A program made the translations under genes and the position numbers. Positions 40,421 through 63,120 of a stretch of DNA of 64,000 nt are shown here, piece after piece (the stretch's first letter is position 1; every line of letters begins with the position of its first letter). The notes under the pieces were generated by a model, which searched no databases, had not been told where the DNA came from, and was given only the letters and a program-made list of their open reading frames with translations. The stretch is from Chitinophagales bacterium (lineage in GTDB: Bacteria > Bacteroidota > Bacteroidia > Chitinophagales > Chitinophagaceae), in NCBI GenBank assembly GCA_017303415.1, contig JAFLBJ010000002.1, positions 1-64,000 of the forward strand, written 5' to 3'.

Positions 40421-40430
40421 ATGATTCGAG

Positions 40431-41897: not shown

Positions 41898-41922
41898 AAG
41901 TAAACCGACAAACCAGGCCAAC

Positions 41923-43200: not shown

Positions 43201-43400
43201 GATACTGAAGCCACCGTGGTTTCATCTGTGAAAAACCTATCGGATTCATGATGATTGTGTGGTACAGTTTAAAACCAATACTTCTGAAGAACCCCACCCG
43301 TACGTATTTCTCCTGGCGGACGGCCTGATAGCAGGCCCGCTTTGAGAAAAGAAGGCAGCGCTGAAAAATCTGAGCGTGCGCTGTAAGAAATGGAAGAAGC

Positions 43401-44741: not shown

Positions 44742-44759
44742 GTAAAGAGTGTATAGAAA

Positions 44760-46016: not shown

Positions 46017-47110
46017 CCAAAAGGGTGATCATAGCCGGGGGTGGTACAGGCGGACATATTTTTCCCGCCATCGCGATTGCCCATGCGCTGAAAAAACTGG
46101 ACCCTTCGATTGAGATATTATTTGTAGGGGCCAAGGGTAAAATGGAAATGGAGAAAGTACCCCAGGCAGGATTTGATATCATCGGATTGGATATAGCCGG
46201 GTTCAACCGAAGTTCTTTGATAAAAAATATTGGATTGCCCTTTAAACTCCTGAAGAGTTTATGGCAGGCCAGATCGATCCTGGTAGGGTTTCTTCCCAAT
46301 GCGGTGGTCGGGGTAGGTGGTTACGCCAGTTTCCCGATGCTCCGACAGGCGCAACGAAAGAAGATTCCAACCCTGATTCAGGAACAGAATTCGCACGCCG
46401 GGAAATCAAATACCATACTTGGCCGGAAAGCAAACCGGATCTGTGTGGCGTATGAAGGCATGGATAAATTCTTTCCTGCAGATCGGATACTGCTCACCGG
46501 TAACCCGGTAAGGGCCACCATCAGTGGTTCCACCTGTAGCCGCGAAGAAGGGGCCGCCTTTTTCAAACTTGACCCATCAAAAAAGATCTTGTTGGTGGTG
46601 GGAGGAAGTCTGGGCGCCCGCTCGATCAACGAAGCCATGGAAAGCGGATTGGATTCCCTGCTTGAAGCAGGTATCCAGGTCATCTGGCAAACCGGAAAAC
46701 CTTTTCTTGAAAGGGCCAGTGCCAAAGCAGCCGGGAAGCAGGGAGTGTGGGTAAACGATTTTATCACCCAGATGGAATTTGGCTACGCGGCGGCAGATGC
46801 AGTGATCTCAAGGGCAGGTGCCATGGCGATCGCAGAATTATGTGTGTTGAAAAAGCCTGTGCTCTTTGTGCCTTTTCCCTTTGCGGCGGAAGACCATCAA
46901 ACAGTCAATGCCCAAAGCCTGGTAAAAAAGAATGCGGCCTTGATGGTGAAAGACAGCGAAGCAAAGGAAAAGGTCGTTCCCATGATGCTGGACCTATTAA
47001 ACGATGAGGCAAAAAGAATGGAGCTGGTAAGGAATATTTCCGAATTGGGAATAACAGATGCCGATGAGCGGATAGCCAGAGAGGTTTTGGCACTCATCAA
47101 AAACAAATGA
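46013..47110 (+). CDS. murG: UDP-GlcNAc:lipid I N-acetylglucosaminyltransferase
   Basis: IAGGGTGGHIFPAIA N-terminal motif. 365 aa. 4 nt overlap with ftsW. Confidence 0.9.
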   Translation: MTKRVIIAGGGTGGHIFPAIAIAHALKKLDPSIEILFVGAKGKMEMEKVPQAGFDIIGLDIAGFNRSSLIKNIGLPFKLLKSLWQARSILVGFLPNAVVGVGGYASFPMLRQAQRKKIPTLIQEQNSHAGKSNTILGRKANRICVAYEGMDKFFPADRILLTGNPVRATISGSTCSREEGAAFFKLDPSKKILLVVGGSLGARSINEAMESGLDSLLEAGIQVIWQTGKPFLERASAKAAGKQGVWVNDFITQMEFGYAAADAVISRAGAMAIAELCVLKKPVLFVPFPFAAEDHQTVNAQSLVKKNAALMVKDSEAKEKVVPMMLDLLNDEAKRMELVRNISELGITDADERIAREVLALIKNK

Positions 47111-48519
47111 ACAACGAGTCTCAACATACTGTCCTTATGAATACCCCCTTTCGGGGGAAACGGGTTTATTTCATTGGTATCGGTGGTATCGGGATGAGTG
47201 CATTGGCCCGTTACTTCCATACCCAGGGTGCGCTGGTGAGTGGATATGATAAAACCTCCACTCCTCTTACGAGAGAGTTGGAGGCATCGGGGATCGGGGT
47301 GCATTATAATGAAGATATTACCAAGGTCCCTCAAAATGCGGAATTGGTGGTGTACACACCCGCCATTCCCAAAGAGCATCAGGAGCTGGTTTATCTCCAG
47401 CAGCAAGGATATAACGTAGTAAAACGCAGCGATGTGCTGCAGATGATATCCAACAGTTCTTTTAATATCTGTATTGCCGGTACCCATGGCAAAACGACCA
47501 TTACCACCATGATCGCGCATCTCTTGCGCGATTCTGGCTATGGCTGCAACGCCTTTTTAGGCGGGATCTCTGTAAACTATGGCACCAATTTCTGGAGCCA
47601 TGAACGAAACGTATGTGTGATAGAAGCGGATGAGTATGATCGGAGTTTTTTGAAATTAAGTCCGGATATCGCGGTGATCACGGCGATGGATGCTGACCAC
47701 CTCGATATCTATGGCACAGCGGAGGAAATGGAAAAGGCTTTTATTGAGTTTTCCGGAAAGGTAAAACCATCTGGTAAACTGGTGAGCAAGTTCGGGTTGA
47801 AAAGAGGGAAAGACCTGTTGACACCCGACCGGACCACCTACAGCCTACAGAATGAAAGTGCCGATGTGTATGCCGACAATATCCGAATGAAAAGCGGCAG
47901 CTACACCTTCGATGTGGTGATGAAAGACAATAGGCTGAATGATGTGGTACTGCATATGGGCGGTATGCACAATGTGGAGAATATCACCGCGGCAATAGCG
48001 GTGGCCAGTTCTTTGGGGATCGAAAATGAGAAGATCAAATCGGCCGTGGAAAATTTCCGGGGCGTAAAACGACGCTTTGAGTATATCATCAAAACCGATA
48101 ACCAGGTTTTTATCGATGATTATGCGCATCACCCGGAAGAACTCAGGGCATTGATCACCGGGGCAAAATCTCTGTTTGCAGGTAAAACCTGTACGGTCAT
48201 TTTTCAACCGCACCTGTTTACCCGTACCAGGGACCATGCGGACGGGTTTGCCGAAGTGCTTGACCTGGCGGACCGGGTCGTTCTGCTCCCGATCTATCCT
48301 GCAAGGGAATTACCGATCGAGGGAGTGAACAGTGAAATGATCCTGGAAAGAATGAAAAACCCTAATAAGGAGCTCGTAAAGAAAGAGGATTTGATGAGCT
48401 GGGTCCAACAGTACGCCAAAACCTGGAACAAGGAATTGGGAAATGTGCTGGTAACCGCAGGAGCAGGGGATATTGATGGAGAACTTGTTGGAATAAAAGA
48501 AATATTAAATAAAAGCTAA
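47107..48519 (+). CDS. murC: UDP-N-acetylmuramate--L-alanine ligase
   Basis: YFIGIGGIGMSALA N-terminus. GTHGKTTIT P-loop. 470 aa. Confidence 0.9.
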   Translation: MNNESQHTVLMNTPFRGKRVYFIGIGGIGMSALARYFHTQGALVSGYDKTSTPLTRELEASGIGVHYNEDITKVPQNAELVVYTPAIPKEHQELVYLQQQGYNVVKRSDVLQMISNSSFNICIAGTHGKTTITTMIAHLLRDSGYGCNAFLGGISVNYGTNFWSHERNVCVIEADEYDRSFLKLSPDIAVITAMDADHLDIYGTAEEMEKAFIEFSGKVKPSGKLVSKFGLKRGKDLLTPDRTTYSLQNESADVYADNIRMKSGSYTFDVVMKDNRLNDVVLHMGGMHNVENITAAIAVASSLGIENEKIKSAVENFRGVKRRFEYIIKTDNQVFIDDYAHHPEELRALITGAKSLFAGKTCTVIFQPHLFTRTRDHADGFAEVLDLADRVVLLPIYPARELPIEGVNSEMILERMKNPNKELVKKEDLMSWVQQYAKTWNKELGNVLVTAGAGDIDGELVGIKEILNKS

Positions 48520-48537
48520 TAGCTATTGGCTATTAGC
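48515..48537. repeat. GCTAATAGC-loop-GCTATTAGC hairpin overlapping the murC stop codon. Same stem as the 12951-12985 terminator
   Basis: 'gctaatagctattggctattagc'. The stem is identical to the hairpin at 12956-12978, with a different loop. Confidence 0.6.
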
Positions 48538-48554
48538 TATTAGTCAAGAAAACC

Positions 48555-49337
48555 GTGAACACTAAAAGAACGATACGAAAACTATTTATAACAGCCATCT
48601 GGCTCCTCGTTGGCGGAGGGCTTGTTTCCTTATTGCTCGCGGCCAACAGCAATAAGAAGCGGCAGGTATGCAATGATTATACGATTGTGATCAAGGGTAT
48701 GGGAGAGAAACCCGTGATCGCTGAAGCTGAGGTTTTGCAGTGGGTGCGTTCCGTGGCCAAAGGAAACATTCGTCAGCAACCTGTTAAGGAACTGGATCTG
48801 CATACGATGGAGCTTTTGGTAGAGAAGAATGCCTGGGTAAAAGATGCCGAGTTGTGGTTTGATAACCGAAATGTATTGCATATAGTGGTAGAAGAACGTT
48901 CCCCCTTGGCGCGGGTATTTACCACCAGTTCAGGCTCTTATTATCTCGATAATGAATTACACCGCTTGCCTTTGAAAAAAGGGTGGATGATCGAGTTGCC
49001 TGTTTTTACCGGCTTCCCGGATCGCAATAAGTGGACGAAAAAAGACAGCCTGTTAGGAAAAGATATTATCCTATTAGCGGATCATATCTCCCGGGATGAA
49101 TTCTGGAAGGCACAAATTGAGCAGGTGGACATGGATTCACGCGGTCAGTTTGATCTGGTAACCCTGGTTGGCAATAACATTATTCGCCTTGGGAAGGCCG
49201 AAGACCTGGAATCGAAATTTTACCGGCTTGATCTTTTTTATAAAAAAGTACTGAGCAAAACCGGCTTTGAAAAGTACGCCGCCATTGATGTACGTTTCAA
49301 GGGCCAGATCGTTGGACAAAAAAAAGCTAACAACTAA
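48555..49337 (+). CDS. ftsQ: Cell-division protein FtsQ (POTRA domain)
   Basis: N-terminal TM followed by a POTRA-like domain. Position between murC and ftsA. Confidence 0.7.
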   Translation: MNTKRTIRKLFITAIWLLVGGGLVSLLLAANSNKKRQVCNDYTIVIKGMGEKPVIAEAEVLQWVRSVAKGNIRQQPVKELDLHTMELLVEKNAWVKDAELWFDNRNVLHIVVEERSPLARVFTTSSGSYYLDNELHRLPLKKGWMIELPVFTGFPDRNKWTKKDSLLGKDIILLADHISRDEFWKAQIEQVDMDSRGQFDLVTLVGNNIIRLGKAEDLESKFYRLDLFYKKVLSKTGFEKYAAIDVRFKGQIVGQKKANN

Positions 49338-49349
49338 ACACAGCATATC

Positions 49350-50723
49350 ATGAACACCGAACAACCCATTATCGTCGGACTTGACATTGGCACTACCAAG
49401 ATCGCTGTCATTGCCGGGAGAAAGAACGAGTTTGGCAAACTCGAGATCCTTGGCTTTGGCCGGGCGAACAGCAATGGTGTAAAACACGGACAGGTCCTGA
49501 ACATTGATGAAACCATCAAAGCCATTCGTTCAGCACTTGAGAACTGCATGGCCTCCAACCCCGATCTCGACATCAATGAAGTGTATGTCGGCATCGCCGG
49601 TCATCACATCAAAAGTTTGCAAACACGGGGTGACATCGTTCGTCAAACCACCGAAGAGGAAATCACCCAACGGGAGATCGATCAACTGGTGGCTGACCAG
49701 TACAAGACCTATATCCCGGCAGGTGACCAGATCATTGATGTGATCCCGCAGGAATTTACCGTGGACAATTTCCAGAATATCCCCAACCCCATTGGATATG
49801 GCGGTGTAAAAGTGGGAGCCAATTTCCACATCATCACCGGTGATAAGAATGCCATCCGGAATATCAACCGGAGCGTGGAGAAATCAGACCTGATCACCAA
49901 AGACCTTGTGTTACAGCCTCTGGCCTCTGCTGCCGCGGTCATGGGACAGGAAGATATGGAAGCCGGTGTGGCCATTGTGGACATAGGTGGTGGTACCACC
50001 GATCTGGCTGTATTCTACGAGGGTATCCTGAAACATACTGCCGTCATTCCTTTTGCCGGTGAAAATATCACCAATGATATCAAAACCGGTTTGGGTGTAC
50101 TCAAAACCCAGGCCGAGCAAATGAAAGTACAATTTGGTTCCGCTCTGGCCAATGAAGCCAAGGCCAATGCCTATATCACCATTCCTGGTTTGCGTGGTAT
50201 GCCCGCCAAGGAGATCAGTGTAAAGAACCTGGCCAATATCATCCAGGCCCGTATGAGTGAGATCATGGATTTTGTGACCTATCACCTCAAACAGGTTGGA
50301 TTGGACAACAAGGCCCTGAATGGCGGTGTCATCCTCACTGGTGGGGGCTCTCAATTGAAACACCTGATCCAGTTGACCGAATATGTGACCGGTCTCAATG
50401 CCCGTATCGGTTTCCCCAATGAACACCTGGCATCCGGGCATATTGAAGACCTGGCTAAACCAACCTACTCAACCTGTATCGGTCTTATCCTGAAAGGATA
50501 TGATGACTATGAGCATAACCGCAAGGACTTTGAAAAGGATTTCAAGAAAGTGGAAGTACCCGAAGGATTGAAGAAAGCCCTCCAGGCCGAAGAAGAAGTA
50601 TTGGTCGAAGAGGAAGTGAACGCCGAGAAAATGCGCAGCCGTCGTGGATTGAGCAATTTCTGGGGTATGTTCAAAGACCGGATTATTGATTTGTTCAAAG
50701 AAGAGGAAGATTCACATTTATAG
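49350..50723 (+). CDS. ftsA: Cell-division protein FtsA
   Basis: Actin-like ATPase motifs VGLDIGTTKIAV and DIGGGTTD. C-terminal amphipathic tail. Confidence 0.9.
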   Translation: MNTEQPIIVGLDIGTTKIAVIAGRKNEFGKLEILGFGRANSNGVKHGQVLNIDETIKAIRSALENCMASNPDLDINEVYVGIAGHHIKSLQTRGDIVRQTTEEEITQREIDQLVADQYKTYIPAGDQIIDVIPQEFTVDNFQNIPNPIGYGGVKVGANFHIITGDKNAIRNINRSVEKSDLITKDLVLQPLASAAAVMGQEDMEAGVAIVDIGGGTTDLAVFYEGILKHTAVIPFAGENITNDIKTGLGVLKTQAEQMKVQFGSALANEAKANAYITIPGLRGMPAKEISVKNLANIIQARMSEIMDFVTYHLKQVGLDNKALNGGVILTGGGSQLKHLIQLTEYVTGLNARIGFPNEHLASGHIEDLAKPTYSTCIGLILKGYDDYEHNRKDFEKDFKKVEVPEGLKKALQAEEEVLVEEEVNAEKMRSRRGLSNFWGMFKDRIIDLFKEEEDSHL

Positions 50724-50724
50724 A

Positions 50725-50806
50725 AGGTCCGAAGTCGAGAGTCCGAAGACAGAGGTCCGAAGAATTGACCTCGGACCCCGGACTTCCGACCTTGGACCCC
50801 GGACCT
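50725..50806. repeat. Octamer-tandem inverted repeat, family F3 (GTCCGAAG x3 followed by reverse-complement units), lying between ftsA and ftsZ
   Basis: 'ggtccgaagtcgagagtccgaagacagaggtccgaag aattg acctcggaccccggacttccgaccttggaccccggacc'. Confidence 0.7.
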
Positions 50807-50838
50807 AAAAAAAATAGTTAATTCAAAATCAACAATAA

Positions 50839-52761
50839 ATGATTCATTTCGATCTCCCCAAAGAGCAATCCTCCATCATCAAAGTGATCGGTGTAGGCGG
50901 CGGTGGAAGCAATGCAGTCAATCACATGCATAACCAGTGTATTGATGGGGTAAATTTTATCATTTGTAATACCGATGCGCAAGCTATTGCCAGCAGTACA
51001 GTGCCCAATAAAGTGCAATTAGGGCCGCATTTGACACAGGGTCTCGGGGCCGGTGCCAATCCGGAGATCGGTCGCCAGGCTACTGAAGAATCGCTGGAAG
51101 AGATCAAGCGCATCCTCGAAGTAAATACCAAGATGGCCTTTATCACTGCCGGTATGGGTGGTGGTACCGGAACCGGTGGCGCTCCGATCATTTCCAAGAT
51201 CTGTAAAGACCTGGGCATTTTGACCGTGGGTATTGTGACCACGCCCTTTGCATATGAAGGAAAGAAAAGACAGCAACAGGCAGAAGAAGGGATCCGGATG
51301 CTGAAACAATATGTGGATACCCTGCTGGTGATCAGCAACGATAAACTGCGTCACCAGTTTGGCAACCTGAAAATGCGCGAGGCCTTTGCCAAAGCGGATA
51401 ACGTACTCGCAACCGCGGCAAAATGTATTACCGATGTGATCACCACCACCGGCCAGATCAATGTGGACTTTGCCGATGTTTGCACTGTTATGAAAAACGG
51501 CGGTGTAGCCATCCTTGGAAGTGCCATGGCAGAAGGGGAGAACCGTGCCCAGCATGCCATCGAGGAAGCCCTGAATTCGCCACTCCTGAATGACAATGAT
51601 ATCCGTGGTGCCAAATGGATCCTGATCAATATCAACAGTGCCGAGGGTGAACACGAGTTTACCATGGATGAGGTAGAGATCATTCAAAACTACCTCCTGA
51701 GTCAGGCGGGTGAAGGAACCGATGTTATCTTGGGTATGGGATATGACAGCAGTCTTGGCAGCCATATCGGCATCACCCTGATCGCCACCGGATTTGAGCA
51801 TAAAGATCCATTTGACCGGAAGGAAGTGAAGAAAGAAGAAAAGAAGGAAGAGAAGATCGTAATGGTCCTTGGTCAACCCAAAGAAGAAAAGAAACTGGAG
51901 GAAACACCGGTTGTAAAAATGGAAACACGTAAGGAAGATCCATTGGCTCCTAAACTGGTCGTTGAAGATAAACCCGTGCCTGTGACCAGTATTGACTGGA
52001 CCGATGATGTGGTTCGTATTGAAGAAACCACACCCGAAGTGATCCTTGACGAACGTGCGCCGGTCGTCTATTGGGAATTGAATGAGGAGAAAAAAGAGGA
52101 TAGTAATATTACGAGGGAAACTACTGTTGAAAAGTATGTGCTTGCTTCTGCTGATGAGCATTTAAATTCGGCCTCCCGATCCGCATCCTCTGCAAATCCC
52201 CAACAACAAGCATCATCCACTAATCAGGATAAAATAAGTACTACACCCACTCCAACGTCTGCAGCGGCGGGTGGGTATCTGGCCAGACCCTCCAATATTT
52301 ATGCAGAGTCCAGGACAGAGGTCTTTACCTCAAAACCTTCTGCAGAAGAACCGGTTTCGCCTTTGCCAGCTGACAAAAAGGACGAGGAAGAAATCCTTGA
52401 CCTTCAACTGGTAGAGCGGGATGACATTCCTGCGGCGGATATACCGTTAGCCCATCAGACTCAACCACCTTTGAGTCATGCGGTTGAGGATCCTGTTTTA
52501 CAGGACGAAGCCGATGAACAAAAACGTAGGGCGGCAGAGCGGTTGCTCAAATTGCGCAACCTCTCGTACAACGTGAACAATGCCGATCCAAATAACGAGT
52601 TTGAAACCGTGCCGGCTTATATCCGCCGCAATATGGAATTGTACCAAAACAGCAATTCCGTCGAAAATTTCTACTCCAACTACGAGGTCAAAACCGACGA
52701 CAACAACAATTCCCGCATCAGTACGATCAATACCTTTTTGGACGGCAAAAAGCCGGACTAA
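50839..52761 (+). CDS. ftsZ: Cell-division GTPase FtsZ with an unusually long C-terminal linker and tail
   Basis: GVGGGGSNAV and tubulin signature GGGTGTG. 640 aa. The roughly 300 aa C-terminal region is rich in E, K, P and T. Confidence 0.9.
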   Translation: MIHFDLPKEQSSIIKVIGVGGGGSNAVNHMHNQCIDGVNFIICNTDAQAIASSTVPNKVQLGPHLTQGLGAGANPEIGRQATEESLEEIKRILEVNTKMAFITAGMGGGTGTGGAPIISKICKDLGILTVGIVTTPFAYEGKKRQQQAEEGIRMLKQYVDTLLVISNDKLRHQFGNLKMREAFAKADNVLATAAKCITDVITTTGQINVDFADVCTVMKNGGVAILGSAMAEGENRAQHAIEEALNSPLLNDNDIRGAKWILININSAEGEHEFTMDEVEIIQNYLLSQAGEGTDVILGMGYDSSLGSHIGITLIATGFEHKDPFDRKEVKKEEKKEEKIVMVLGQPKEEKKLEETPVVKMETRKEDPLAPKLVVEDKPVPVTSIDWTDDVVRIEETTPEVILDERAPVVYWELNEEKKEDSNITRETTVEKYVLASADEHLNSASRSASSANPQQQASSTNQDKISTTPTPTSAAAGGYLARPSNIYAESRTEVFTSKPSAEEPVSPLPADKKDEEEILDLQLVERDDIPAADIPLAHQTQPPLSHAVEDPVLQDEADEQKRRAAERLLKLRNLSYNVNNADPNNEFETVPAYIRRNMELYQNSNSVENFYSNYEVKTDDNNNSRISTINTFLDGKKPD

Positions 52762-54669: not shown

Positions 54670-57048
54670 TTAATTGCGGATAGGTTTTCCGCTTTTGAGC
54701 ACACTTTGAATGCGCTCCAGGGTTTTCTTTTCTCCGCACAAGGATAGAAAAGCTTCCCTCTCCAGGTCGAGTAAATATTGTTCAGAGACCGTGCTTGCTT
54801 CACTCAGATCGCCTCCACACATCACAAAGGCTAATTTTTTAGCCACTACTACATCATGATCGGTGGCATAGTTACCCCGCCACATGCCATTTATCCCTGC
54901 ATACAGGGCGCCAAGGGCAGAGCGTCCCAACACTTTTATATCCTTTCGTTGCACAGGGGCTACATATCCGCTACCGGCTATTTCCAATACCGATTTTTTG
55001 GCTTCCGCCACACGACGTCCCTGGTTGAGTACGATCTCATCAAGTCCTTTACGATAGATGCCCAGGTCAAATGCTTCATGCGCGGAAGTGGCCACTTTTG
55101 CCGTAGCTATTGAAAGAAACCTGTTTTTTAACGTGATCGTCTCCGGTTCGTCTTTATGCATTTCATCAGAAGCACGCAATACAAACTCTTTGGTTCCGCC
55201 ACCACCGGGAATCAATCCCACACCCAATTCCACCAACCCCGTATAGGTTTCTGCGGCCGGACAACATTTATCCGCGTGCAGGTTTAGTTCGCATCCGCCT
55301 CCCAATGTCAATCCATGAGGAGCTGTTACTACAGGAATCCCTGAATAGCGTACCCGCATCATGGTTTGTTGAAACATACGAATGGCAAGATCAAGTTCAT
55401 CATATTCCTGGTCAATGGCCAGCATAAAGATCATACCCACATTGGCGCCGGCACTGAAATTAGGTCCTTCATTAGCGATCACCAGGCCTTTGAAATCCTT
55501 CTCTGCCTTTTCAATTCCCATCTGGATACCACTCAACACATCCCCACCGATACTACCCATTTTGGTATTCCACTGCAAGCCGAGCACATCATCTCCCAGG
55601 TCATAGAGTTTGCAGCTTCCGTTTTTCCATACCAGTTTATCGGCCCGGTTGCTCATCACCATAAAGGCATCACCACCAGGCAATGGTTTATAGGATTTGG
55701 AGGCGGGGTCGTAAGCCAATTTTTGTCCCTTTTCCACTTTATAAAACTGGGTATGTCCGGCAGCGAGCATATCCGTCACCCAGGCGGCAACGGTAAACCC
55801 GGCTTTGTTCATGGCTTCTATTGTACGGGCTACGCCCAGCGTATCCCAGCTTTCAAAGGCACCTATTTCCCAACCAAAACCTGCCATCATCGCGTCGTCA
55901 ACACGGTACAGTTCGTCACTGATCTCCGGAATGCGGTGGGAGATATAGGAAAAAAGATGATAATGGAACTGGCGGTAAAATTCACCCGCTTTGTCAGTGC
56001 CGGCTACCAGCATTTTCAAACGTTGGTGAAGGTCATCCACCGGTTTGGCCGTTTCAAGCGTGGCAAATTTTGATTTGACCCGTGGGGCATATTCAAAAGT
56101 GCTCAGGTTCAGGGTTTGAATATCACTCTTGCCATCGGGCGTTTTTACTTTTTTAAAAAATCCCTGTCCTGATTTATCTCCCAACCATTTATTCTCGACT
56201 AATTTATCCAGCCAGGACGGTATGGTAAAAATGGCGCGTGCTTCATCTTGCGGGCAATTCTCTGCTACCCCCTTGGCTACTTTCACCAGCGTATCAATTC
56301 CCACCACATCCGCTGTGCGGAAAGTGGCTGATTTTGGACGACCAATAATAGGACCGGTAAGGGCATCCACCTCATCCACCGTCAACCCCAATTGCTCCAT
56401 GACCTTCATAATGGCCATCATCCCAAATACCCCAATCCGGTTGGCGATAAAAGCAGGCGTGTCCTTGCACAATACCGTTGTTTTTCCCAGAAAAAGGTCT
56501 CCATAATGCATCAGAAATTCCACAATGGATGGATCTGTATGCGGGGTAGGGATGATCTCCAGCAGGCGCAGGTACCTCGGTGGATTGAAGAAGTGAGTGC
56601 CACAAAAGTGTTTTTTAAAATCCTCTGTTCTACCCTCCGTCATCATATGAATGGGGATACCCGAAGTATTGGAGGTTATAAGGGTGCCGGGTTTCCGGTA
56701 TTTTTCTACCTGTTCAAATACCTGTTGTTTGATGTCCAGTCGCTCTACCACTACCTCTATGATCCAGTCACAGGCACCGATCTCTTTCATGTTGTCATCA
56801 AAATTGCCGGTACTGATCTTCTTTACCACCTCCTTGTGATAGACAGGAGAGGGGTTGGATTTTATAGCGGCCGTCAGTGAGTCGTTCACGATCTTATTCC
56901 GGGCCTTGGCGTCCTTGCTTTCCCTGGCCTCAGCAGGAACAATATCCAATAATAATACCTGTACGCCGATCCCGGCAAAATGACAAGCGATACGGCTACC
57001 CATGACACCACTGCCTAAAACGGCAACCTTCTTAATGATCCGGTTCAT
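54670..57048 (-). CDS. Bifunctional 3-hydroxyacyl-CoA dehydrogenase / enoyl-CoA hydratase (N-terminal HCDH and C-terminal crotonase)
   Basis: N-terminal NAD-binding VAVLGSGVMGSRIA. Two HCDH C-terminal domains. C-terminal ECH fold (GGGCELNLHAD). 792 aa. Confidence 0.85.
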   Translation of the reverse strand: MNRIIKKVAVLGSGVMGSRIACHFAGIGVQVLLLDIVPAEARESKDAKARNKIVNDSLTAAIKSNPSPVYHKEVVKKISTGNFDDNMKEIGACDWIIEVVVERLDIKQQVFEQVEKYRKPGTLITSNTSGIPIHMMTEGRTEDFKKHFCGTHFFNPPRYLRLLEIIPTPHTDPSIVEFLMHYGDLFLGKTTVLCKDTPAFIANRIGVFGMMAIMKVMEQLGLTVDEVDALTGPIIGRPKSATFRTADVVGIDTLVKVAKGVAENCPQDEARAIFTIPSWLDKLVENKWLGDKSGQGFFKKVKTPDGKSDIQTLNLSTFEYAPRVKSKFATLETAKPVDDLHQRLKMLVAGTDKAGEFYRQFHYHLFSYISHRIPEISDELYRVDDAMMAGFGWEIGAFESWDTLGVARTIEAMNKAGFTVAAWVTDMLAAGHTQFYKVEKGQKLAYDPASKSYKPLPGGDAFMVMSNRADKLVWKNGSCKLYDLGDDVLGLQWNTKMGSIGGDVLSGIQMGIEKAEKDFKGLVIANEGPNFSAGANVGMIFMLAIDQEYDELDLAIRMFQQTMMRVRYSGIPVVTAPHGLTLGGGCELNLHADKCCPAAETYTGLVELGVGLIPGGGGTKEFVLRASDEMHKDEPETITLKNRFLSIATAKVATSAHEAFDLGIYRKGLDEIVLNQGRRVAEAKKSVLEIAGSGYVAPVQRKDIKVLGRSALGALYAGINGMWRGNYATDHDVVVAKKLAFVMCGGDLSEASTVSEQYLLDLEREAFLSLCGEKKTLERIQSVLKSGKPIRN

Positions 57049-57141
57049 ATATAATTATTTTCGAAATAAAAATAGTTAGTTATGCAACTATTTACTTCGA
57101 AGATAGAGAAAATTGGGAATATATATTCTTTGAATTACGAC

Positions 57142-57203
57142 AGAGGCACAGCGACGTGGAGAAATGACTTTTTCTCCACGTCGCTGTGCCTCTGTGTTTT
57201 TAG
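57142..57203. terminator. A long, perfect 23 bp hairpin with a T-run, possibly a terminator or attenuator, located between the DUF5777-like gene and the fadB-like gene
   Basis: 'agaggcacagcgacgtggagaaa tgactt tttctccacgtcgctgtgcctct' followed by gtgttttta. Confidence 0.6.
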
Positions 57204-57210
57204 TTGCAGC

Positions 57211-58110
57211 CTATTTGTTCTTCTTTTCCTTCTTATTAATCTGAAAGGCCCGCATAATATTAAATCCGAATTGTATTTCTCCTTTACCCCACTGCCCGGT
57301 TGTTTCCGTAAGGAAGGACCGTTCATTCATACCCAGGGCATTGCTAAAGTGCAGTTGAAATACGTGTCCACCTGTTTCAATATCAAATCCGATAGACAGG
57401 GGGTCACGGGTGCCATCAGCCTCATTGGGGTTTACGCGGTATAGGTAATCGGCGGTTAGAGAAATGCGGTTACTAAGCCGTATTCGGCCACCTACCCCTA
57501 CCGCTATCAGGTCACTGGGATCGGCAAAATCCGGGACCAGGTTTCTATGAAGAACCGTAGGCGTTACTTGCAGCGTGATCGCTTCCGACAGTTTGCTGCC
57601 AATGATGATCTGCCCATAGTAGGCCATTCGGGAGGTAAAGAAGTTTTTGCGGGTGGTATCCGCCCATTTCAATGAATTGAGCGTACCGCCTGCTACGACT
57701 ACTACAGAAAAGGGGAGACCTCCATTTTTGGATTGATGGACAAGCCGGTATTTCAAAAAACCATCAAATTCTTTTTTGTTGGTACTCCGGCCAACGCCGA
57801 GCATGAAGTTTTTGGTGATCCCGAAATCCAGTCCCATACGCATCGTGGCATTATCAAGCCCAAACATTTCATAAGCCCCTTTGTCAATAGAACCAAAGCG
57901 GTGTAGGATCCGGAAATCCATTACCCCGGGCCGGATCAGTTCCATACTCTGGCTCATGATCACCCGCGAGGATTTAAACGCATAATCTACATGTTCCTTT
58001 TTGGGTTTATCGTCGCCCACCAGGCTTAGAAGATCTTCATCCTGGGCGTAGCTGGACAAAGACGAGAGGGTAAGCAGGATACCAAACAGTTGAAGGCGTA
58101 AGGAAGACAT
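57211..58110 (-). CDS. Secreted beta-barrel-like protein (DUF5777-like), last gene of the cytochrome/YceI operon
   Basis: Signal peptide MSSLRLQLFGILLTLSSLSSYAQ. 299 aa. Beta-strand alternation. Confidence 0.45.
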   Translation of the reverse strand: MSSLRLQLFGILLTLSSLSSYAQDEDLLSLVGDDKPKKEHVDYAFKSSRVIMSQSMELIRPGVMDFRILHRFGSIDKGAYEMFGLDNATMRMGLDFGITKNFMLGVGRSTNKKEFDGFLKYRLVHQSKNGGLPFSVVVVAGGTLNSLKWADTTRKNFFTSRMAYYGQIIIGSKLSEAITLQVTPTVLHRNLVPDFADPSDLIAVGVGGRIRLSNRISLTADYLYRVNPNEADGTRDPLSIGFDIETGGHVFQLHFSNALGMNERSFLTETTGQWGKGEIQFGFNIMRAFQINKKEKKNK

Positions 58111-58143
58111 ATGAATAGTTTATTCTTAGGAAGTAAAACGATA

Positions 58144-58701
58144 TTATTTCAATGGCTCAAGGGCACATTCCACTTTGATATTGACCGTATTGGATATCTT
58201 GTCACTTACCACAGAAGGAATACTTACTTTATAATCTGACAGCAATACCTGGAAGGTTGCGAGGATATTGACCTTGCCTCCTTTTACACTCACTTTGCCG
58301 CTGGTCTCTACATCCCTGGTTTCTCCATGCATGGTAAGTTTGCCTTTTACTTTGGCGGTGTATTCTCCATCCTTGGCATAATTGATATCGCTGTTGTTGG
58401 AAACCATGCCTTTGAACTCCGCTTTTGGGAACTTATGGCTTTCCACATAATTTTCATTGAAGTGTTCCTGCATCAACGCTCTTTTAAATTCAAAACCTTT
58501 CATCTGAACCGCAAACTGCATATTGCCCGTTTTGCTATCTACTACACAGGTTGTACTGCTATTGGTGGCTTCGATCTTTTCGAGAGGTGATTTGGTACAT
58601 TCAAAAAATATGGTACCGGTCTTGGTAAAATATTTATCCTGCGCCAGCAGTTGGATCGTGCTAAAGGCTACAATGGCCAGGGTGAAAAGGATCTTTTTCA
58701 T
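58144..58701 (-). CDS. YceI-family periplasmic protein (polyisoprenoid-binding lipocalin-like barrel)
   Basis: Signal peptide. 185 aa. YceI-like pattern (TGTIFFECTKSPLEKIEAT...KVKGKLTMHGETRDV). Confidence 0.7.
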   Translation of the reverse strand: MKKILFTLAIVAFSTIQLLAQDKYFTKTGTIFFECTKSPLEKIEATNSSTTCVVDSKTGNMQFAVQMKGFEFKRALMQEHFNENYVESHKFPKAEFKGMVSNNSDINYAKDGEYTAKVKGKLTMHGETRDVETSGKVSVKGGKVNILATFQVLLSDYKVSIPSVVSDKISNTVNIKVECALEPLK

Positions 58702-58730
58702 GATTGTTGTTTTGTGGTTAAAAAAGTTGT

Positions 58731-59186
58731 CTAATTCATAATGAGTACACAGCGGGAAAGAAATACATCAGCACCCAGCAATTCGTCACTGTTAAAACCA
58801 GTAACAACACCTCTTACCCGGGCCGGGGTACCGGCACGCAGGTTTGCAAGGTCATTTACATGGGTCGAGTCAATAGCGCATTGAACGGAGGACATATCCT
58901 CCGCGGAGGCCTGGAGTACCAGGGTCATTTTGCCACGCTCATCTTTGTTGATGGATTTCACCGTTCCGGTGACATCAATGACATACTCTTCTTTTGGAAG
59001 GTATTTTTGATTGGCTGCGGTCTCGTTGCTGGTAAATTCCTGCACCAGTTTTTCTGCTTCAATGGTCAGCGCGGGTTTTACTTTCGTGAGGTCCTTGTTT
59101 CCTTTGGTGTACACTTTGTACCCGTAGAAGGCCCCGGCGGCAACAACCAGGCCGATGATCGTGAACAGAATGGTTCTTTTCTTCAT
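58731..59186 (-). CDS. tRNA_anti-like / OB-fold protein (membrane-anchored)
   Basis: N-terminal anchor. AEKLVQEFTSNETAANQKYLPKEEYVIDVTGTV, typical of the tRNA_anti-like OB family. 151 aa. Confidence 0.6.
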   Translation of the reverse strand: MKKRTILFTIIGLVVAAGAFYGYKVYTKGNKDLTKVKPALTIEAEKLVQEFTSNETAANQKYLPKEEYVIDVTGTVKSINKDERGKMTLVLQASAEDMSSVQCAIDSTHVNDLANLRAGTPARVRGVVTGFNSDELLGADVFLSRCVLIMN

Positions 59187-59197
59187 GGTGGTTCATT

Positions 59198-59608
59198 TTA
59201 ATTATTGGGAGCTCCGGCATCTACCCAGGCTTTTATTTTCTGGATGGTACAGGCATTCACTTTATTACCCCCCTGTGGCATGGGGCTGAACCCTCCGCTG
59301 TAATTGATGGAACCATAAAGACTTCCATTCAAGGCGGATGTTCGAACGGCTGAATAGGTATCCAGTGCGATATTGCCTGAGGCAAAAGAAGCACTATGAC
59401 AACTTACGCACTGAGCCTGCATCAATGGGGCAACCGTATTCGAGTAGGTCACTCCGGTGGTGTCACAAGGCGTATTATTCATCTGGTAGAGCTCTGCTTC
59501 GATGTCGTAATAACAACCAGCCATGGTCATCATTCCCAGGATCCCGAGTAGGGCGACCGATTTTCTTCCGATTTTCATATTGTGATTTTTCAAGAATTCA
59601 TTGTTCAT
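59198..59608 (-). CDS. Putative c-type cytochrome lipoprotein carrying one PSCyt1-like domain
   Basis: Signal and lipobox-like ...MTMAGC. Heme motif CVSCH. Downstream PMPQ...WVDAGAPNN matches the PSCyt1 pattern (CxxCH...MPP...WIxxGA). The start may instead be Met11 at 59578. Confidence 0.65.
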   Translation of the reverse strand: MNNEFLKNHNMKIGRKSVALLGILGMMTMAGCYYDIEAELYQMNNTPCDTTGVTYSNTVAPLMQAQCVSCHSASFASGNIALDTYSAVRTSALNGSLYGSINYSGGFSPMPQGGNKVNACTIQKIKAWVDAGAPNN

Positions 59609-60328
59609 TTAATTATTTGGCGCGCCCGCATCGATCCATTTTTTAAACTGGGTAAGTTGGCAGTCGCTTAGTCCTGTACCTGCAGGAGGCATAGGGGCAA
59701 ATCCAGGATCTTTATGAATCGAACCCCATAGTTTACCATTGTCTGCCGCCGCTTTCACTCCATTATATGTACTTAGGTCAATACCACCACCTGCTGCGGA
59801 TCCCGTATGGCAATCCTGGCACTGAGCGGTGATCAATGGTTTGATTGCTCCTGAAAAGGTAAACAGGGAAGAATCACAGGCACTGCTGCAGGAATTGTTC
59901 TTGGCTCCTTGCTGAATCCATTTGGTGATCAGGTTGATCTGGTCCTGCGGCATTTTTGGATCGGGAGGCGGGGGCATCCGGTCACCAAGGTTATTGGTAA
60001 CGATCACACTCAGTAGTTTGCTTCCACCCGGATTATTGGGCTTCACGATCTTCATGATGCCCGTATAGGTGGTGAGGTTCAGCCCTTCCACATGTGAAGC
60101 GGCATCATGGCAACCACTTTTGGCGCAATTGGAAACAATTAAAGGAAGGATCTGCTGTTGGAAATAAACGGAATCGGGGCTGCAGGGTTGGGTTCCACCG
60201 GTTGTGCCACCTCCTGTACCACCACCGTCTGTCGGATTAGGGTAGAGTATCTCATGTTTACAGGCCCAAAGCGTTACGATTACAGCAATGGCCGCAACAA
60301 GAGAACGCGCAAGGTTCATCTTTCGCAT
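59609..60328 (-). CDS. Putative c-type cytochrome lipoprotein carrying two tandem PSCyt1-like domains
   Basis: Signal followed by Cys. Two CxxCH motifs (CAKSGCH and CQDCH), each followed by MPP...KWIQQGAKNN or KWIDAGAPNN. Gly/Thr-rich linker. Confidence 0.65.
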   Translation of the reverse strand: MRKMNLARSLVAAIAVIVTLWACKHEILYPNPTDGGGTGGGTTGGTQPCSPDSVYFQQQILPLIVSNCAKSGCHDAASHVEGLNLTTYTGIMKIVKPNNPGGSKLLSVIVTNNLGDRMPPPPDPKMPQDQINLITKWIQQGAKNNSCSSACDSSLFTFSGAIKPLITAQCQDCHTGSAAGGGIDLSTYNGVKAAADNGKLWGSIHKDPGFAPMPPAGTGLSDCQLTQFKKWIDAGAPNN

Positions 60329-60555
60329 AATAATTGGTTGTTTAGGTTAAAAGGGCTCTTTGGTGGAAAAGAGAATTCTTCCCAAATAGCAGCTTGGGTT
60401 GTAGATTGGTGTCCGCCGGAGTTTATGATGTAACCACTTTCCGCGTTTTTTTTCTGATTATTTTTTAAGTCAACAACCAAGCCAGATTTAGCATACAAAA
60501 ACGCCCTAAATGTCTTTTAATCCAGTGCGCTATATATGTATATGGCATGCCACTA

Positions 60556-60600
60556 AAACAAAAAAGATGCTGTTATCTTTTAGTTACAGCATCATTTTTA
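60556..60600 (-). terminator. Bidirectional rho-independent terminator downstream of metG
   Basis: 'aaaaaagatgctgttatcttttagttacagcatcattttt': an 8 bp stem flanked by an A-run and a T-run. Confidence 0.75.
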
Positions 60601-60626
60601 TCTTGATGATTAAAATAATTGAAAGC

Positions 60627-62780
60627 CTAAGAAACCCCGGAGCCGGGTTCCACTTTATTCTCTGTATGCAGAAAATGCAATTTGCCTGTTTTATCCTCTG
60701 CCATCAGGATCATTCCCTGGCTTTCGATGCCGCGCATTTTTCGCGGAGCGAGGTTGGCAACTACGGTCACTTGTTTACCAACGATCTCTTCTGGTGTAAA
60801 ATGCATCGCAATTCCTGAAACGATGGTGCGGGTCTCGGTACCCATATCCACCTGAAGTTTTAACAATTTATCTGCTTTTTCAACCTTTTCGGCAGCGATG
60901 ATGGTTCCGATACGAAGGTCCAGTTTGGCAAAATCATCATACTGGATCTCGGATTTGGCAACGGGTGCTGTTGTTTCTTTTTTCTCATCCACTTTTTTGA
61001 CTTGAATGGTTTGTGCAGGGGGAGGGGTGGAGTGGGCTTTTAACTTTTCCACTTGGGCCTTGATCTCTTCATCTTCGACCTTCCGGAATAAAAGTTCTGG
61101 TGCCCGCAGGGTGTACCCCACGCTAAGCAATTTAACGGACCCGGCGTTTTTCCAATCCAGCATCTTGTCCACCACTTTCATCATATGACACATGCGGGAG
61201 GCTGTGTTGGGCAGGAAGGGATTGATAAGTATGGCGAGATTGGCCGTTAACTGAAGACAGTAATGCAGACAGTTATCGATCAATAATTGCTGATCGGGAT
61301 TTTCACTGATCGTCTTGGCCAGGATCCAGGGTTCTTTCTTCTGCATGTATTGATTGCCCTTTCGACTCAGATCGATTACTTCAAATAGCGCTTCCCGGAA
61401 TTTATATTGTTCCAACAATCCTTCTACCCGTTCTTTGGTAGCCTTGATGTCATTTTCCAAATCTTTGTCCAGGTCATCTGCCTTTTCTGCATGATAGCGG
61501 GGTACTTTACCGCCACATAGTTTGTGCATCAATACCCAGGTACGGTTGACAAAATTGCCATAAATGCTCACCAGTTCACTGTTCACGGCATCCTGAAAAC
61601 CTTTCCAGGTAAACTCGCTGTCCTTGGTCTCCGGCGCGATCTGTGTAAGATAATATCGGAGCATATCCACACACTGGCCACCCCCGTTTTCCTTCTTTAC
61701 AAAATCCTGGATATAGTCACGCATATCGAGTTTCCAGTTGCGACTGGTGCTCATTTTATCGCCTTCCAGGTTAAGGAATTCATTGGCCGGCACATTATCC
61801 GGTAAAATATTTCCATGCAACTGAAGCATGATGGGGAATATGATGCAATGGAAAACGATATTGTCTTTTCCAATAAAGTGCACCAGTTTGGTGTCCTTAT
61901 CGTACCAATAAGGTTTCCAATCCTTCTCATTGTCGATGGCCCATTGTTTTGTCGCACTGATATACCCGATCGGGGCATCAAACCATACATACAGTACTTT
62001 CCCATCTACGGCCTCTGTTGTAGCCTCAGTTCCTGCCGAAACAGGAACGCGAATACCCCAATCAAGGTCGCGGGTTACCGCACGTGATTGCAGCCCCCCA
62101 TCGATCCAGCTTTTACATTGACCAGTCACGGTTCCACGCCAATCATCTTTATGGTCTTCAATTATCCATTGCCGTAAAAATGCCTCATGTTTTCCCAGCG
62201 GGAGATACCAATGGGTGGTTTTTTTCTTGATCGGGGGTTGGCCGCTCAGCGTGCTAACCGGATTGATCAGTTCATCGGGGCTCAGGGTGCTGCCACAATT
62301 TTCACATTGATCACCATAGGCCCGGTCGCTTCCGCAAACGGGACAGGTACCCTTAATATAGCGGTCAGCTAAAAAGGTCTTGGCCGATTCATCAAAGTAT
62401 TGTTCGGTCTCTTTGGTTTCCAGTTCTCCTCTTTCGTTCAGGTATTGGAAAAATTCCTGAGCGGTCTCATGATGGAGCGGGTCACTGGTCCGATGGTAGA
62501 TGTCAAAGGAAATGTTCAGATCGGCAAAATCTTCCTTCATCGCCTCATGGTACTTGTCAATAATGGCGCGGGGAGTAGTGCCTTCCTTCATGGCCTGGAT
62601 GGGGATGGCTGTGCCGTGTTCATCACTGCCACAGACAAAAACCACGTCCCTTTTTTGAGCCCTTAGATAGCGGACATAGATATCGGCCGGAATATAAGCC
62701 CCCGCCAGATGACCGATGTGTTTCAATCCATTGGCATAGGGCAGGGCAGAGGTAATGAGGTATCTTTTCGGAGTGTTCAT
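60627..62780 (-). CDS. metG: Methionine--tRNA ligase with a C-terminal tRNA-binding domain
   Basis: HIGH-type motif in ALPYANGLKHIGHLAG. KMSKS as KMSTS. Zn-knuckle cysteines (CPVCGS and CENCG). C-terminal EMAP-like domain. Start trimmed to MNTPKRY at 62780; the ORF-caller start lies in the repeat. Confidence 0.9.
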   Translation of the reverse strand: MNTPKRYLITSALPYANGLKHIGHLAGAYIPADIYVRYLRAQKRDVVFVCGSDEHGTAIPIQAMKEGTTPRAIIDKYHEAMKEDFADLNISFDIYHRTSDPLHHETAQEFFQYLNERGELETKETEQYFDESAKTFLADRYIKGTCPVCGSDRAYGDQCENCGSTLSPDELINPVSTLSGQPPIKKKTTHWYLPLGKHEAFLRQWIIEDHKDDWRGTVTGQCKSWIDGGLQSRAVTRDLDWGIRVPVSAGTEATTEAVDGKVLYVWFDAPIGYISATKQWAIDNEKDWKPYWYDKDTKLVHFIGKDNIVFHCIIFPIMLQLHGNILPDNVPANEFLNLEGDKMSTSRNWKLDMRDYIQDFVKKENGGGQCVDMLRYYLTQIAPETKDSEFTWKGFQDAVNSELVSIYGNFVNRTWVLMHKLCGGKVPRYHAEKADDLDKDLENDIKATKERVEGLLEQYKFREALFEVIDLSRKGNQYMQKKEPWILAKTISENPDQQLLIDNCLHYCLQLTANLAILINPFLPNTASRMCHMMKVVDKMLDWKNAGSVKLLSVGYTLRAPELLFRKVEDEEIKAQVEKLKAHSTPPPAQTIQVKKVDEKKETTAPVAKSEIQYDDFAKLDLRIGTIIAAEKVEKADKLLKLQVDMGTETRTIVSGIAMHFTPEEIVGKQVTVVANLAPRKMRGIESQGMILMAEDKTGKLHFLHTENKVEPGSGVS

Positions 62781-62817
62781 TTGCGTGGCAAAAATACGGG
62801 ATTCCCGGGAGGTGGAT

Positions 62818-63120
62818 GTTGGATGTTGGATGACGGAGGACAGATGACGGATGACGGATGTTGGATGATGGATGTTGGATGGCGGAGGCTTGCTGTGCGA
62901 GACCTCTGGTCTCGCACGCATCTCCCGTCGCCTCTGGCGACAGAAATTGATTATTTTTCTAGATTTGCAATAATTTCTTATTCGAGTCGCCAGAGGCGAC
63001 AAGACAATCGTGCGAGACCAGAGGTCTCGCACAGCAAGCCTCCGCCATCCAACATCCAACATCCGTCATCCGTCATCTTTCCTCCGTCCTCCGTCATCCA
63101 AAATCCCACATCCAACCTCC
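62818..63120. repeat. Composite palindromic element with F1 heptamer arms (GGATGTT/GGATGAC). The arms enclose nested perfect palindromes and an AT-rich core
   Basis: The arms share 'gaggcttgctgt' with the element at 36115-36300. Inner units: 'tgcgagacctctggtctcgca' and 'gtcgcctctggcgac'. A 44 bp AT-rich core lies at 62943-62986. Their reverse complements follow. Confidence 0.85.

Follow-up and report, generated by a model that had tools for sequence, protein, structure and literature searches.

An operon pairing haem lipoproteins with a YceI lipocalin and a DUF5777 barrel in Bacteroidota, a possible envelope electron relay

Known YceI-cytochrome systems and the window operon

Operons that join a YceI-family lipocalin to a haem protein recur widely. 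In Burkholderia, lcoA-bcnA encodes a cytochrome b561 (LcoA) and a YceI lipocalin (BcnA), and such pairs are operonic or fused in many Proteobacteria (PMC9113575). Mutants in lcoA-bcnA accumulate membrane lipid peroxidation products. In the model proposed there, the lipocalin carries a quinone that is re-reduced by the cytochrome, and would in turn quench lipid peroxyl radicals (PMC9113575). In Escherichia coli, yceI had been described as operonic with the cytochrome b561 gene yceJ in the original prediction on the DNA considered here, and the two genes are indeed adjacent, with a gap of 3 nucleotides (nt). This DNA, called the window, is a stretch of 64,000 nt (positions 1-64,000 of contig JAFLBJ010000002.1, assembly GCA_017303415.1) from a Chitinophagales bacterium (Chitinophagaceae). 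Its positions 57211-60328 hold an operon of five co-directional minus-strand genes, A to E, in which a YceI gene stands together with genes for c-type haem lipoproteins.

The products of this operon may together relay electrons between periplasm and outer membrane, as a c-type counterpart of the cytochrome b561-YceI module, a tentative reading with a probability of about 0.45. The original prediction had proposed an envelope electron-transfer module or a handler of lipophilic cofactors; this is still the best reading, and still one that we infer. The same prediction had spoken of an uncharacterised module; the b561 form is one no longer, since LcoA-BcnA has a published role in the detoxification of lipid peroxyl radicals (PMC9113575). 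The parts of the cluster belong to known families, and its most likely role has a published analogue. The genes, taken from the list of open reading frames (ORFs) and the sequence, and the haem motifs are the following (aa, amino acids; OB, oligonucleotide/oligosaccharide-binding).

59609-60328, minus strand: gene A, 239 aa, two-domain PSCyt1-type cytochrome c lipoprotein
59198-59578, minus strand: gene B, 126 aa, mono-haem lipoprotein (longest ORF 59198-59608)
58731-59186, minus strand: gene C, 151 aa, OB-fold protein (tRNA_anti-like)
58144-58701, minus strand: gene D, 185 aa, YceI-family lipocalin
57211-58110, minus strand: gene E, 299 aa, DUF5777 protein of the outer membrane (predicted)
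60107-60127, minus strand: haem motif 1 of A, C-AKSG-CH (CX4CH), read directly from the sequence
59807-59821, minus strand: haem motif 2 of A, CQDCH (CXXCH)
59396-59410, minus strand: haem motif of B, CVSCH (CXXCH)

Among LcoA-BcnA, foxEYZ and the Mtr/Pio systems, the cluster would be most like LcoA-BcnA in its working. As in Burkholderia cenocepacia, a YceI lipocalin shares one operon with a haem protein; the profile of D matches BcnA (5ixg, 1.3e-6), and a lipocalin-bound quinone cycled by a cytochrome is the mechanism that would apply here also. The differences are that a pair of c-type haem lipoproteins stands in place of the membrane b561, that the window cluster has three further components (a second cytochrome, an anchor with an OB fold and a barrel in the outer membrane), and that the lineage is Bacteroidota. 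In addition, the cysteines of D are partly conserved, whereas BcnA homologues are reported without them. None of the five products matches a b561 family in Pfam, and the operon is flanked by metG and a 3-hydroxyacyl-CoA dehydrogenase gene. The cluster is therefore an analogue of LcoA-BcnA and not a member of it.

FoxE, the di-haem Fe(II) oxidoreductase encoded in foxEYZ of Rhodobacter ferrooxidans, is the nearest and the only significant solved relative of A (PDB 5mab; E-value 1.5e-5 for the whole sequence, both matched stretches being individually insignificant). Both proteins have two haem motifs, each followed by a segment of MPP...WI..GA type, as well as candidates for His/Met-type ligation and conserved cysteine pairs; those of A recall the disulfide described for FoxE (PMC10654088). 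The identity between the two is very low, and A differs in being a lipoprotein and in having CX4CH as its first site. FoxY (a pyrroloquinoline quinone propeller) and FoxZ (a transporter) are absent from the operon and its flanks, so the cluster is not a foxEYZ member. The cultured carriers of the cluster, Niastella, Niabella and Adhaeribacter, are ordinary aerobic heterotrophs and are not known as photoferrotrophs.

Genes for an outer-membrane barrel and a c-type cytochrome also share one operon in MtrAB, PioAB, MtoAB and Cyc2, and by analogy this arrangement suggests electron exchange at the outer membrane. In Mtr, Pio and Mto, deca-haem cytochromes are placed in porins of 26-28 strands, and in Cyc2 a mono-haem domain is fused to a larger porin, whereas the window cluster has a 12-strand barrel and separate one- and two-haem lipoproteins. 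With 12 strands and one or two haems, the cluster is not a conduit of the Mtr/Pio type, for which about ten haems and a porin of at least 20 strands would be expected.

Conservation of the cluster

A profile search of species-representative genomes with E gave at least 594 relatives. The ORFs of the best 80 of these loci were searched with the five window proteins, and linkage was counted in the 60 loci having at least 3.2 kilobases (kb) upstream of E. A cytochrome of type A or B lies beside the barrel gene in all 60 loci, D in 57, C in 54 (two more have a divergent tRNA_anti-like gene), B in 53 and A in 47. The exact order A-B-C-D-E is found in 31/60, and the alternative orders C-A-B-D-E-D, C-A-B-D-E and A-B-E-D-C hold the same gene set. 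Intergenic gaps have a median of 17 nt and are 50 nt or shorter in 185/220 cases. By these counts the neighbourhood is strongly conserved among relatives, which had been named as a test of the original prediction.

Three more distant DUF5777 loci all pair a B-type haem lipoprotein (CXXCH or CX4CH) with the barrel, and two of them also have YceI. The occupancy counts together with these loci define a conserved core of haem lipoprotein, (OB protein), YceI and barrel. A is a frequent addition to the core B-C-D-E and is absent from about a fifth of the related loci; the five-gene operon described earlier thus stands as a recurring gene set, with a core of four genes rather than five.

The loci belong to Chitinophagaceae, Cytophagales (Adhaeribacter, Chryseosolibacter) and Saprospiraceae, and the operon is found in soil and water Bacteroidota. 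An exhaustive profile search (E-value up to 1e-3) returned 2,050 DUF5777 clusters at 50% identity. Contigs L028, L048, L058 and L062 carry typical Chitinophagaceae-like clusters although their metagenome-assembled genomes (MAGs) are assigned to Dadabacteria, Methylophilus or Alphaproteobacteria; faulty binning is a more probable cause of this than horizontal transfer.

Haem lipoproteins A and B

A matches the Pfam hidden Markov model (HMM) PSCyt1 (PF07635; gathering cut-off 22 bits) with 52.4 bits (8e-14) in two stretches, and also Cytochrome_CBB3 (1.2e-6). B reaches 15.5 bits against PSCyt1, which is under the cut-off, but is 47% identical to the second domain of A over 89 residues (E-value 3e-30) and hence has the same fold, though outside the curated PSCyt1 model. 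By sequence, B is clearly a paralogue of the second domain of A. An NCBIfam scan added nothing specific for the five proteins.

Both proteins have a lipobox, ..LWA-C23 in A and MAG-C22 in B, and the lipobox cysteine is kept in 51/51 and 60/60 homologues, respectively. The mature N-terminus of A, C-(K/R)-H-E, is conserved across genera; A also has a Gly-rich linker and two PSCyt1-type cytochrome c domains. That of B, C-Y-Y-D-K-E-D-L-L-Y-P, is conserved across genera as CYYD.E..LY. Thus both lipoproteins foreseen in the original prediction are there, with PSCyt1 holding for A and remaining sub-threshold for B.

Three c-type haem motifs are distributed over A and B, one CX4CH and two CXXCH. In A, C68/C73/H74 and C170/C173/H174 are kept in 51/51 homologues, and M118 and M213 in 50/51; in B, C22/C57/C60/H61/M100/W118 are kept in 60/60. 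Each domain therefore offers one essentially invariant candidate axial Met, namely M118 and M213 for the two domains of A and M100 for B, and the WI..GA helix has tryptophans that are likewise essentially invariant in both proteins. Four further cysteines of A are conserved, as additional cysteine pairs. By motif and conserved candidate axial ligand, A and B are predicted to be c-type cytochromes with covalently attached haem.

The first motif of A has the form C-x-x-(S/A/T)-G-C-H in about 53/59 A-type ORFs, so that the CxxCH previously ascribed to these cytochromes applies to site 2 of A and to B, and not to site 1 of A. The cytochrome literature counts CX4CH among the motifs that bind haem (PMC5566968). 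In pairwise alignment, the CX4CH of A is matched to the CXXCH of B through a two-residue insertion inside the motif, and CX4CH is present at the B haem position in 15/68 B homologues. CX4CH and CXXCH interchange at one position in A domain 1, in B, and in an accessory Reeler/choice-of-anchor V protein (in the window and in loci L007-L086). Such interchange is expected if both motifs bind haem, and implies that the cytochrome c maturation system of the lineage accepts both.

PSCyt1 is also known from giant PSCyt1-PSCyt2-PSD1 proteins of Planctomycetes, with which A shares the match to the PSCyt1 model and the MPP...WI..GA signature of its domains. A and B differ from these in being small stand-alone lipoproteins without PSCyt2 or PSD1, in belonging to Bacteroidota, and in having one CX4CH. 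The domain had been regarded as otherwise typical of Planctomycetes and Verrucomicrobia; this does not hold, as the cytochrome type is abundant in Bacteroidota.

OB-fold protein C and YceI protein D

C matches Pfam tRNA_anti-like (PF12869) with 66.6 bits (2.3e-18; cut-off 23.5). It has an uncleaved N-terminal membrane anchor without a lipobox cysteine, and the inner membrane is its predicted place. A profile built from 53 homologues matches 3f1z, an OB-fold "putative nucleic acid-binding lipoprotein" (9.6e-6); the sequence of C alone has no significant match in PDB. CcmE-like haem chaperones are also membrane-anchored OB folds, and C was considered as one of these. This assignment was dropped because there is no sequence link and because, apart from C103, C offers no clear conserved ligand of the His, Tyr or Cys kind.

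D matches Pfam YceI (PF04264) with 58.3 bits (1.5e-15; cut-off 23.7), and its signal peptide ends ..LLA|QDK, as in a periplasmic lipocalin. The HMM scores of C and D confirm the OB-fold and YceI assignments made earlier, and the check with the three models (PF07635, PF04264, PF12869) supports PSCyt1 for A, YceI for D and tRNA_anti-like for C. Besides BcnA, the D profile matches HP1286, E. coli YceI and Campylobacter polyisoprenoid-binding proteins (the set includes 3hpe, 1y0g and 5w2d). By analogy with these family members, D may bind a polyisoprenoid or quinone ligand. Induction of YceI is described for Riemerella when iron is limiting and for Zobellia growing on algae, observations that bear only loosely on the cluster.

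The DUF5777 barrel E

E matches Pfam DUF5777 (PF19089) with 302 bits (3e-90), above threshold, and its signal peptide ends ..SYA|QDED. The structure model built from 124 diverse family members is a 12-stranded beta-barrel with a predicted local distance difference test (pLDDT) score of 94.3; it supersedes a model from 18 close homologues with a pLDDT of only 58.7. An extended, conserved N-terminal segment (about residues 38-62) precedes the barrel. According to the model, E is predicted to be an outer-membrane barrel, membrane-embedded rather than the "secreted beta-barrel" of the original prediction. A Chitinophagaceae MAG contains an identical protein under the annotation hypothetical.

Mean column identity in E is 77% among 18 sequences of different genera, which is unusually high for an outer-membrane protein or porin. 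Many of the conserved barrel residues are charged or polar. Throughout the diverse set H70 and H249 do not vary; judged from strand register only, they appear at opposite ends of the barrel, so there is no obvious bis-His site.

The fold matches KdgM, NanC, the COG4313 hydrophobic-compound channel, FapF and FadL/TodX; the sequence of E alone has no significant match in PDB. KdgM/NanC, FapF, COG4313 and the beta-domains of type Va autotransporters are 12-stranded like E, with sequence identities of 13% or less. In one relative, P0167, an N-terminal extra domain is placed like the passenger of a type Va autotransporter, whereas the window E has no passenger domain.

Accessory genes and regulation in related loci

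The extra domain of P0167, seen on two independent contigs, is a Reeler/choice-of-anchor V domain fused to the N-terminus of DUF5777. In 11 loci a Reeler/choice-of-anchor V protein, sorted by the type IX secretion system, is inserted in the cluster (L031:5533-6387, L035:5381-6298, L040:5574-6422 and others), and its N-terminus bears CXXCH or CX4CH in all cases inspected. The name "choice-of-anchor" presumably refers to a domain held at the cell surface by alternative anchors. To judge from the fusion in P0167, the barrel may be one of these anchors; the fusion also connects the system with the cell surface. Relative to the known YceI-cytochrome module, the new elements are the conserved CX4CH, the dedicated and highly conserved 12-strand barrel, and the optional surface haem domain of Reeler type.

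Other genes flank the cluster in some loci, including a SprB-repeat lipoprotein (13 loci), DUF6660 together with a TonB-dependent receptor (6-9 loci), a further YceI gene that follows E (6 loci), a ChaN-like protein (4 loci), a nitroreductase (4 loci) and an AhpC/TSA peroxiredoxin (2 loci). Regulators differ as well. In 15-17 loci the cluster is immediately preceded by genes for an AraC-family regulator and a 126-aa protein. A Reg_prop/Y_Y_Y-His_kinase with a LytTR response regulator is found in 16-17 loci, and the Niabella locus has an extracytoplasmic function (ECF) sigma factor. The housekeeping genes lpxA, recR, birA and ftsH recur as flanks within sub-clades. The window copy has none of these accessory genes.

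The 126-aa protein (L011:4244-4624 and 16 other loci) always precedes A in the AraC-linked clade and matches no Pfam or NCBIfam family. It ends ..QPPR, and nearby DUF6660 proteins (e.g., L011:9575-9880) end ..WQPPK, which suggests a C-terminal motif shared by the two. The sequence CACATGGCATCATTTTTGAATATTT is conserved immediately before its start codon.

A CRP/FNR-like palindrome, TGTGA-N6-TYACA, occurs in 10/59 upstream regions, compared with 4.6 in shuffles (maximum 10). In the AraC/small-protein clade (L011, L014, L017, L024, L030), palindromes of this kind lie 20-60 nt before the first cluster gene. The palindrome is absent from the window and concentrated in one clade, and for this reason was not used in interpretation.

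Proposed mechanism and alternatives

The five products are predicted to span the cell envelope, with C in the inner membrane, D in the periplasm, A and B as lipoproteins, and E in the outer membrane. In the proposed relay, D would hold a polyisoprenoid quinone, in this lineage most likely menaquinone, with which the haem lipoproteins A and B would exchange electrons. E would anchor the assembly or give access to the outer membrane and the cell surface. The most likely job would be to quench or process envelope oxidants, such as reactive oxygen species and lipid peroxyl radicals. Besides lipid or oxygen radicals, the relay could also act on Fe(II) or on some other substrate at the surface. His/Met c-type haems are usually high-potential, suited to accepting electrons from quinol, Fe(II) or superoxide and to donating them to strong oxidants, and ill-suited to reducing ferric minerals. 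This property favours the quenching or processing of envelope oxidants. The conserved haem sites of A and B, the relation of D to BcnA and the isoprenoid-binding family, and the relation of A to FoxE support the relay, as do the conserved gene linkage, the LcoA-BcnA precedent, the Reeler-type surface proteins and the antioxidant-type genes (AhpC/TSA, nitroreductase, MauG/cytochrome c peroxidase) beside the cluster in some loci.

Several points weigh against such a relay. The cluster encodes neither a membrane quinol dehydrogenase nor a cytochrome b561 that could be the point of electron entry or exit at the inner membrane. The similarity of A to FoxE is weak at the level of the matched stretches. 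With 12 strands, the barrel is too narrow to enclose a cytochrome as MtrB or PioB do, and KdgM, NanC, COG4313 and FapF, which the fold of E resembles, are channels and not redox proteins. Antioxidant genes lie beside a minority of loci, and iron-related ones (TonB receptor, ChaN) beside about as many. No regulator, riboswitch or recognisable operator adjoins the window copy. Finally, a literature search on DUF5777 returned no paper that mentions the family, and no experimental work was found on any DUF5777 cluster member.

The alternative that survives best, though unlikely, is metal redox chemistry, in which Fe(II) or another reduced metal would enter through the DUF5777 barrel or bind at it and be oxidised by the His/Met haem lipoproteins, the electrons going on to the respiratory chain. 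On a small scale this would resemble FoxE or Cyc2, but serve to handle or detoxify iron and not to sustain growth. The position of FoxE as the sole significant solved relative of A, with two haem motifs, following MPP...WI..GA segments and conserved cysteine pairs in common, speaks for it, as do the TonB-dependent siderophore-type receptors, DUF6660 and ChaN-like genes that flank the cluster in 4-9/80 loci. The accessory Reeler-type domains may also resemble the eukaryotic Reeler-DOMON-b561 architecture, which is that of a ferric reductase; literature searches found no paper on YceI with DOMON, and for a bacterial Reeler domain with haem all that came up were papers on ticks and insects. Yet FoxY and FoxZ are missing, the FoxE similarity is weak, the cultured carriers lead an ordinary heterotrophic life, and Fur-box-like sites (up to 6 mismatches) are not enriched in 59 upstream regions (7 observed, 7.2 in shuffles). 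YceI, kept in 57/60 loci, would be left without a role.

Lipid traffic is an improbable alternative. Here the barrel, YceI and the membrane-anchored OB protein would route an isoprenoid or other lipid across the periplasm, for uptake or export, and the cytochromes would only modify the cargo or sense redox state. YceI proteins, including those whose structures D matches, bind long isoprenoids and lipophilic compounds (PMC9113575), the barrel has COG4313, FadL/TodX and the specific channels KdgM/NanC as fold neighbours, and each layer of the envelope, from inner membrane through periplasm to outer membrane, is predicted to contain one of the three non-haem proteins. However, the haem lipoprotein accompanies the barrel in 60/60 loci and is more constant than YceI or the OB protein, which is hard to explain if redox is peripheral and makes a pure lipid-transport role less likely. 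In addition, no energising component of ABC, MCE or RND type is linked, and the charged and polar residues conserved in the barrel do not favour lipid passage.

It is highly improbable that A and B merely feed di-haem cytochrome c peroxidase (CCP) or MauG-like enzymes encoded nearby or elsewhere, with YceI and the barrel as independent, co-regulated stress proteins. Bacterial CCPs do require a small cytochrome c or cupredoxin donor, and genes for MauG/CCP-type di-haem peroxidases occur within about 3.5 kb in 8/80 loci, but most loci, the window included, have no peroxidase gene nearby, and a single machine is indicated by the short gaps within B-C-D-E as well as by the fusion of a domain to the barrel. 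That the five genes are neighbours by descent without cooperating is hardly credible, for although the closest loci all belong to a single taxonomic order, in which synteny could be inherited, and flanks such as lpxA, recR, birA and ftsH also recur in sub-clades, the linkage outlasts changes of order, flanks and regulators and the loss of A, extends to distant family members, and comes with operon-like gaps (median 17 nt).

Layout and flanks of the window operon

The gaps between the window genes are 0 nt from A to B (30 nt if B starts at the called site), then 11, 29 and 33 nt, in keeping with the co-directional arrangement and 0-33 nt gaps given originally. Independent gene calls on identical metagenomic contigs place the start of B at 59578. 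The long upstream intergenic region of the original prediction is present also, as is a strong hairpin downstream of the operon.

60329-60626, minus strand: upstream intergenic region of 298 nt, from the metG stop to the A start
57137-57197, minus strand: long near-perfect hairpin 3' of the E stop, with a stem of 25-27 bp

The operon promoter is presumably located in the 298-nt spacer, which also contains a terminator-like hairpin of metG itself (stem at about 60566-60593, followed by a T-run; free energy, dG, -13.1 kcal/mol). The exact Bacteroidetes -7 box (TAnnTTTG) is absent from the spacer, where the sole relaxed match is TAAATCTG at 60490, and a sigma-70 promoter scan gave sites no more numerous than in shuffles. 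An Rfam scan of 56900-60800 (E-value up to 1) found no riboswitch or leader, the lone match being a spurious miRNA on the 3' hairpin.

The hairpin at 57137-57197 is unique within the window and has a dG of -51.3 kcal/mol (z = -10.5; 0/200 shuffles as stable). Its coding (minus) strand has no T-run, so the earlier label "terminator-like" is fair but unproven. It is probably the 3' end or a stabiliser of the operon transcript. The strain variant L001 shows one compensatory stem pair, T>C with A>G (GACGTGGAG/CTCCACGTC in the window, GACGCGGAG/CTCCGCGTC in L001), and a third variant has the change on a single side only.

On the metG side, positions 62813-63114 form a 129-nt inverted repeat (arms 62813-62941 and 62986-63114, 89% complementary, 44-nt loop) made of tandem 7-nt units GGATGTT/GGATGAC. 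It lies directly upstream of the real metG start, and because of it the metG ORF appears to be 811 aa, compared with 717 aa from gene callers. Further away, a long plus-strand gene run at 38258-52761, ending with ftsQ, ftsA and ftsZ (Pfam on the identical contig L001), looks like a division and cell wall (dcw) cluster, which would place the operon in a housekeeping part of the chromosome.

Implications

A quite unlikely extension of the relay is a trans-envelope conduit, in which YceI would ferry menaquinol to haem lipoproteins on the barrel, and the barrel would display the Reeler haem domain outside in the manner of an autotransporter. If true, this would be a previously unrecognised route by which Bacteroidota bring reducing power to the outer membrane and the surface. 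With three to four haems and a 12-stranded barrel, it would be mechanistically unlike the Mtr, Pio and Cyc2 systems, and it would rely on CX4CH haem attachment by the maturation system of the lineage, presumed to be System II. Independently of the conduit, the conserved CX4CH raises the question whether this Bacteroidota system accepts the motif.

The cluster bears on how the outer membrane, which itself lacks both an energy source and a quinone pool, is protected from redox chemistry or supplied with it. Of the envelope proteins whose mechanism is not settled, YceI lipocalins are some of the most common, and the cluster offers a defined system in which they can be tested, consisting of five parts with three haem sites, one lipocalin, one anchor and one barrel. 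The operon also gives DUF5777 its first functional context. If the YceI-cytochrome partnership works with c-type haem as well, it would be a second independent case for a lipocalin that presents a redox-active lipid.

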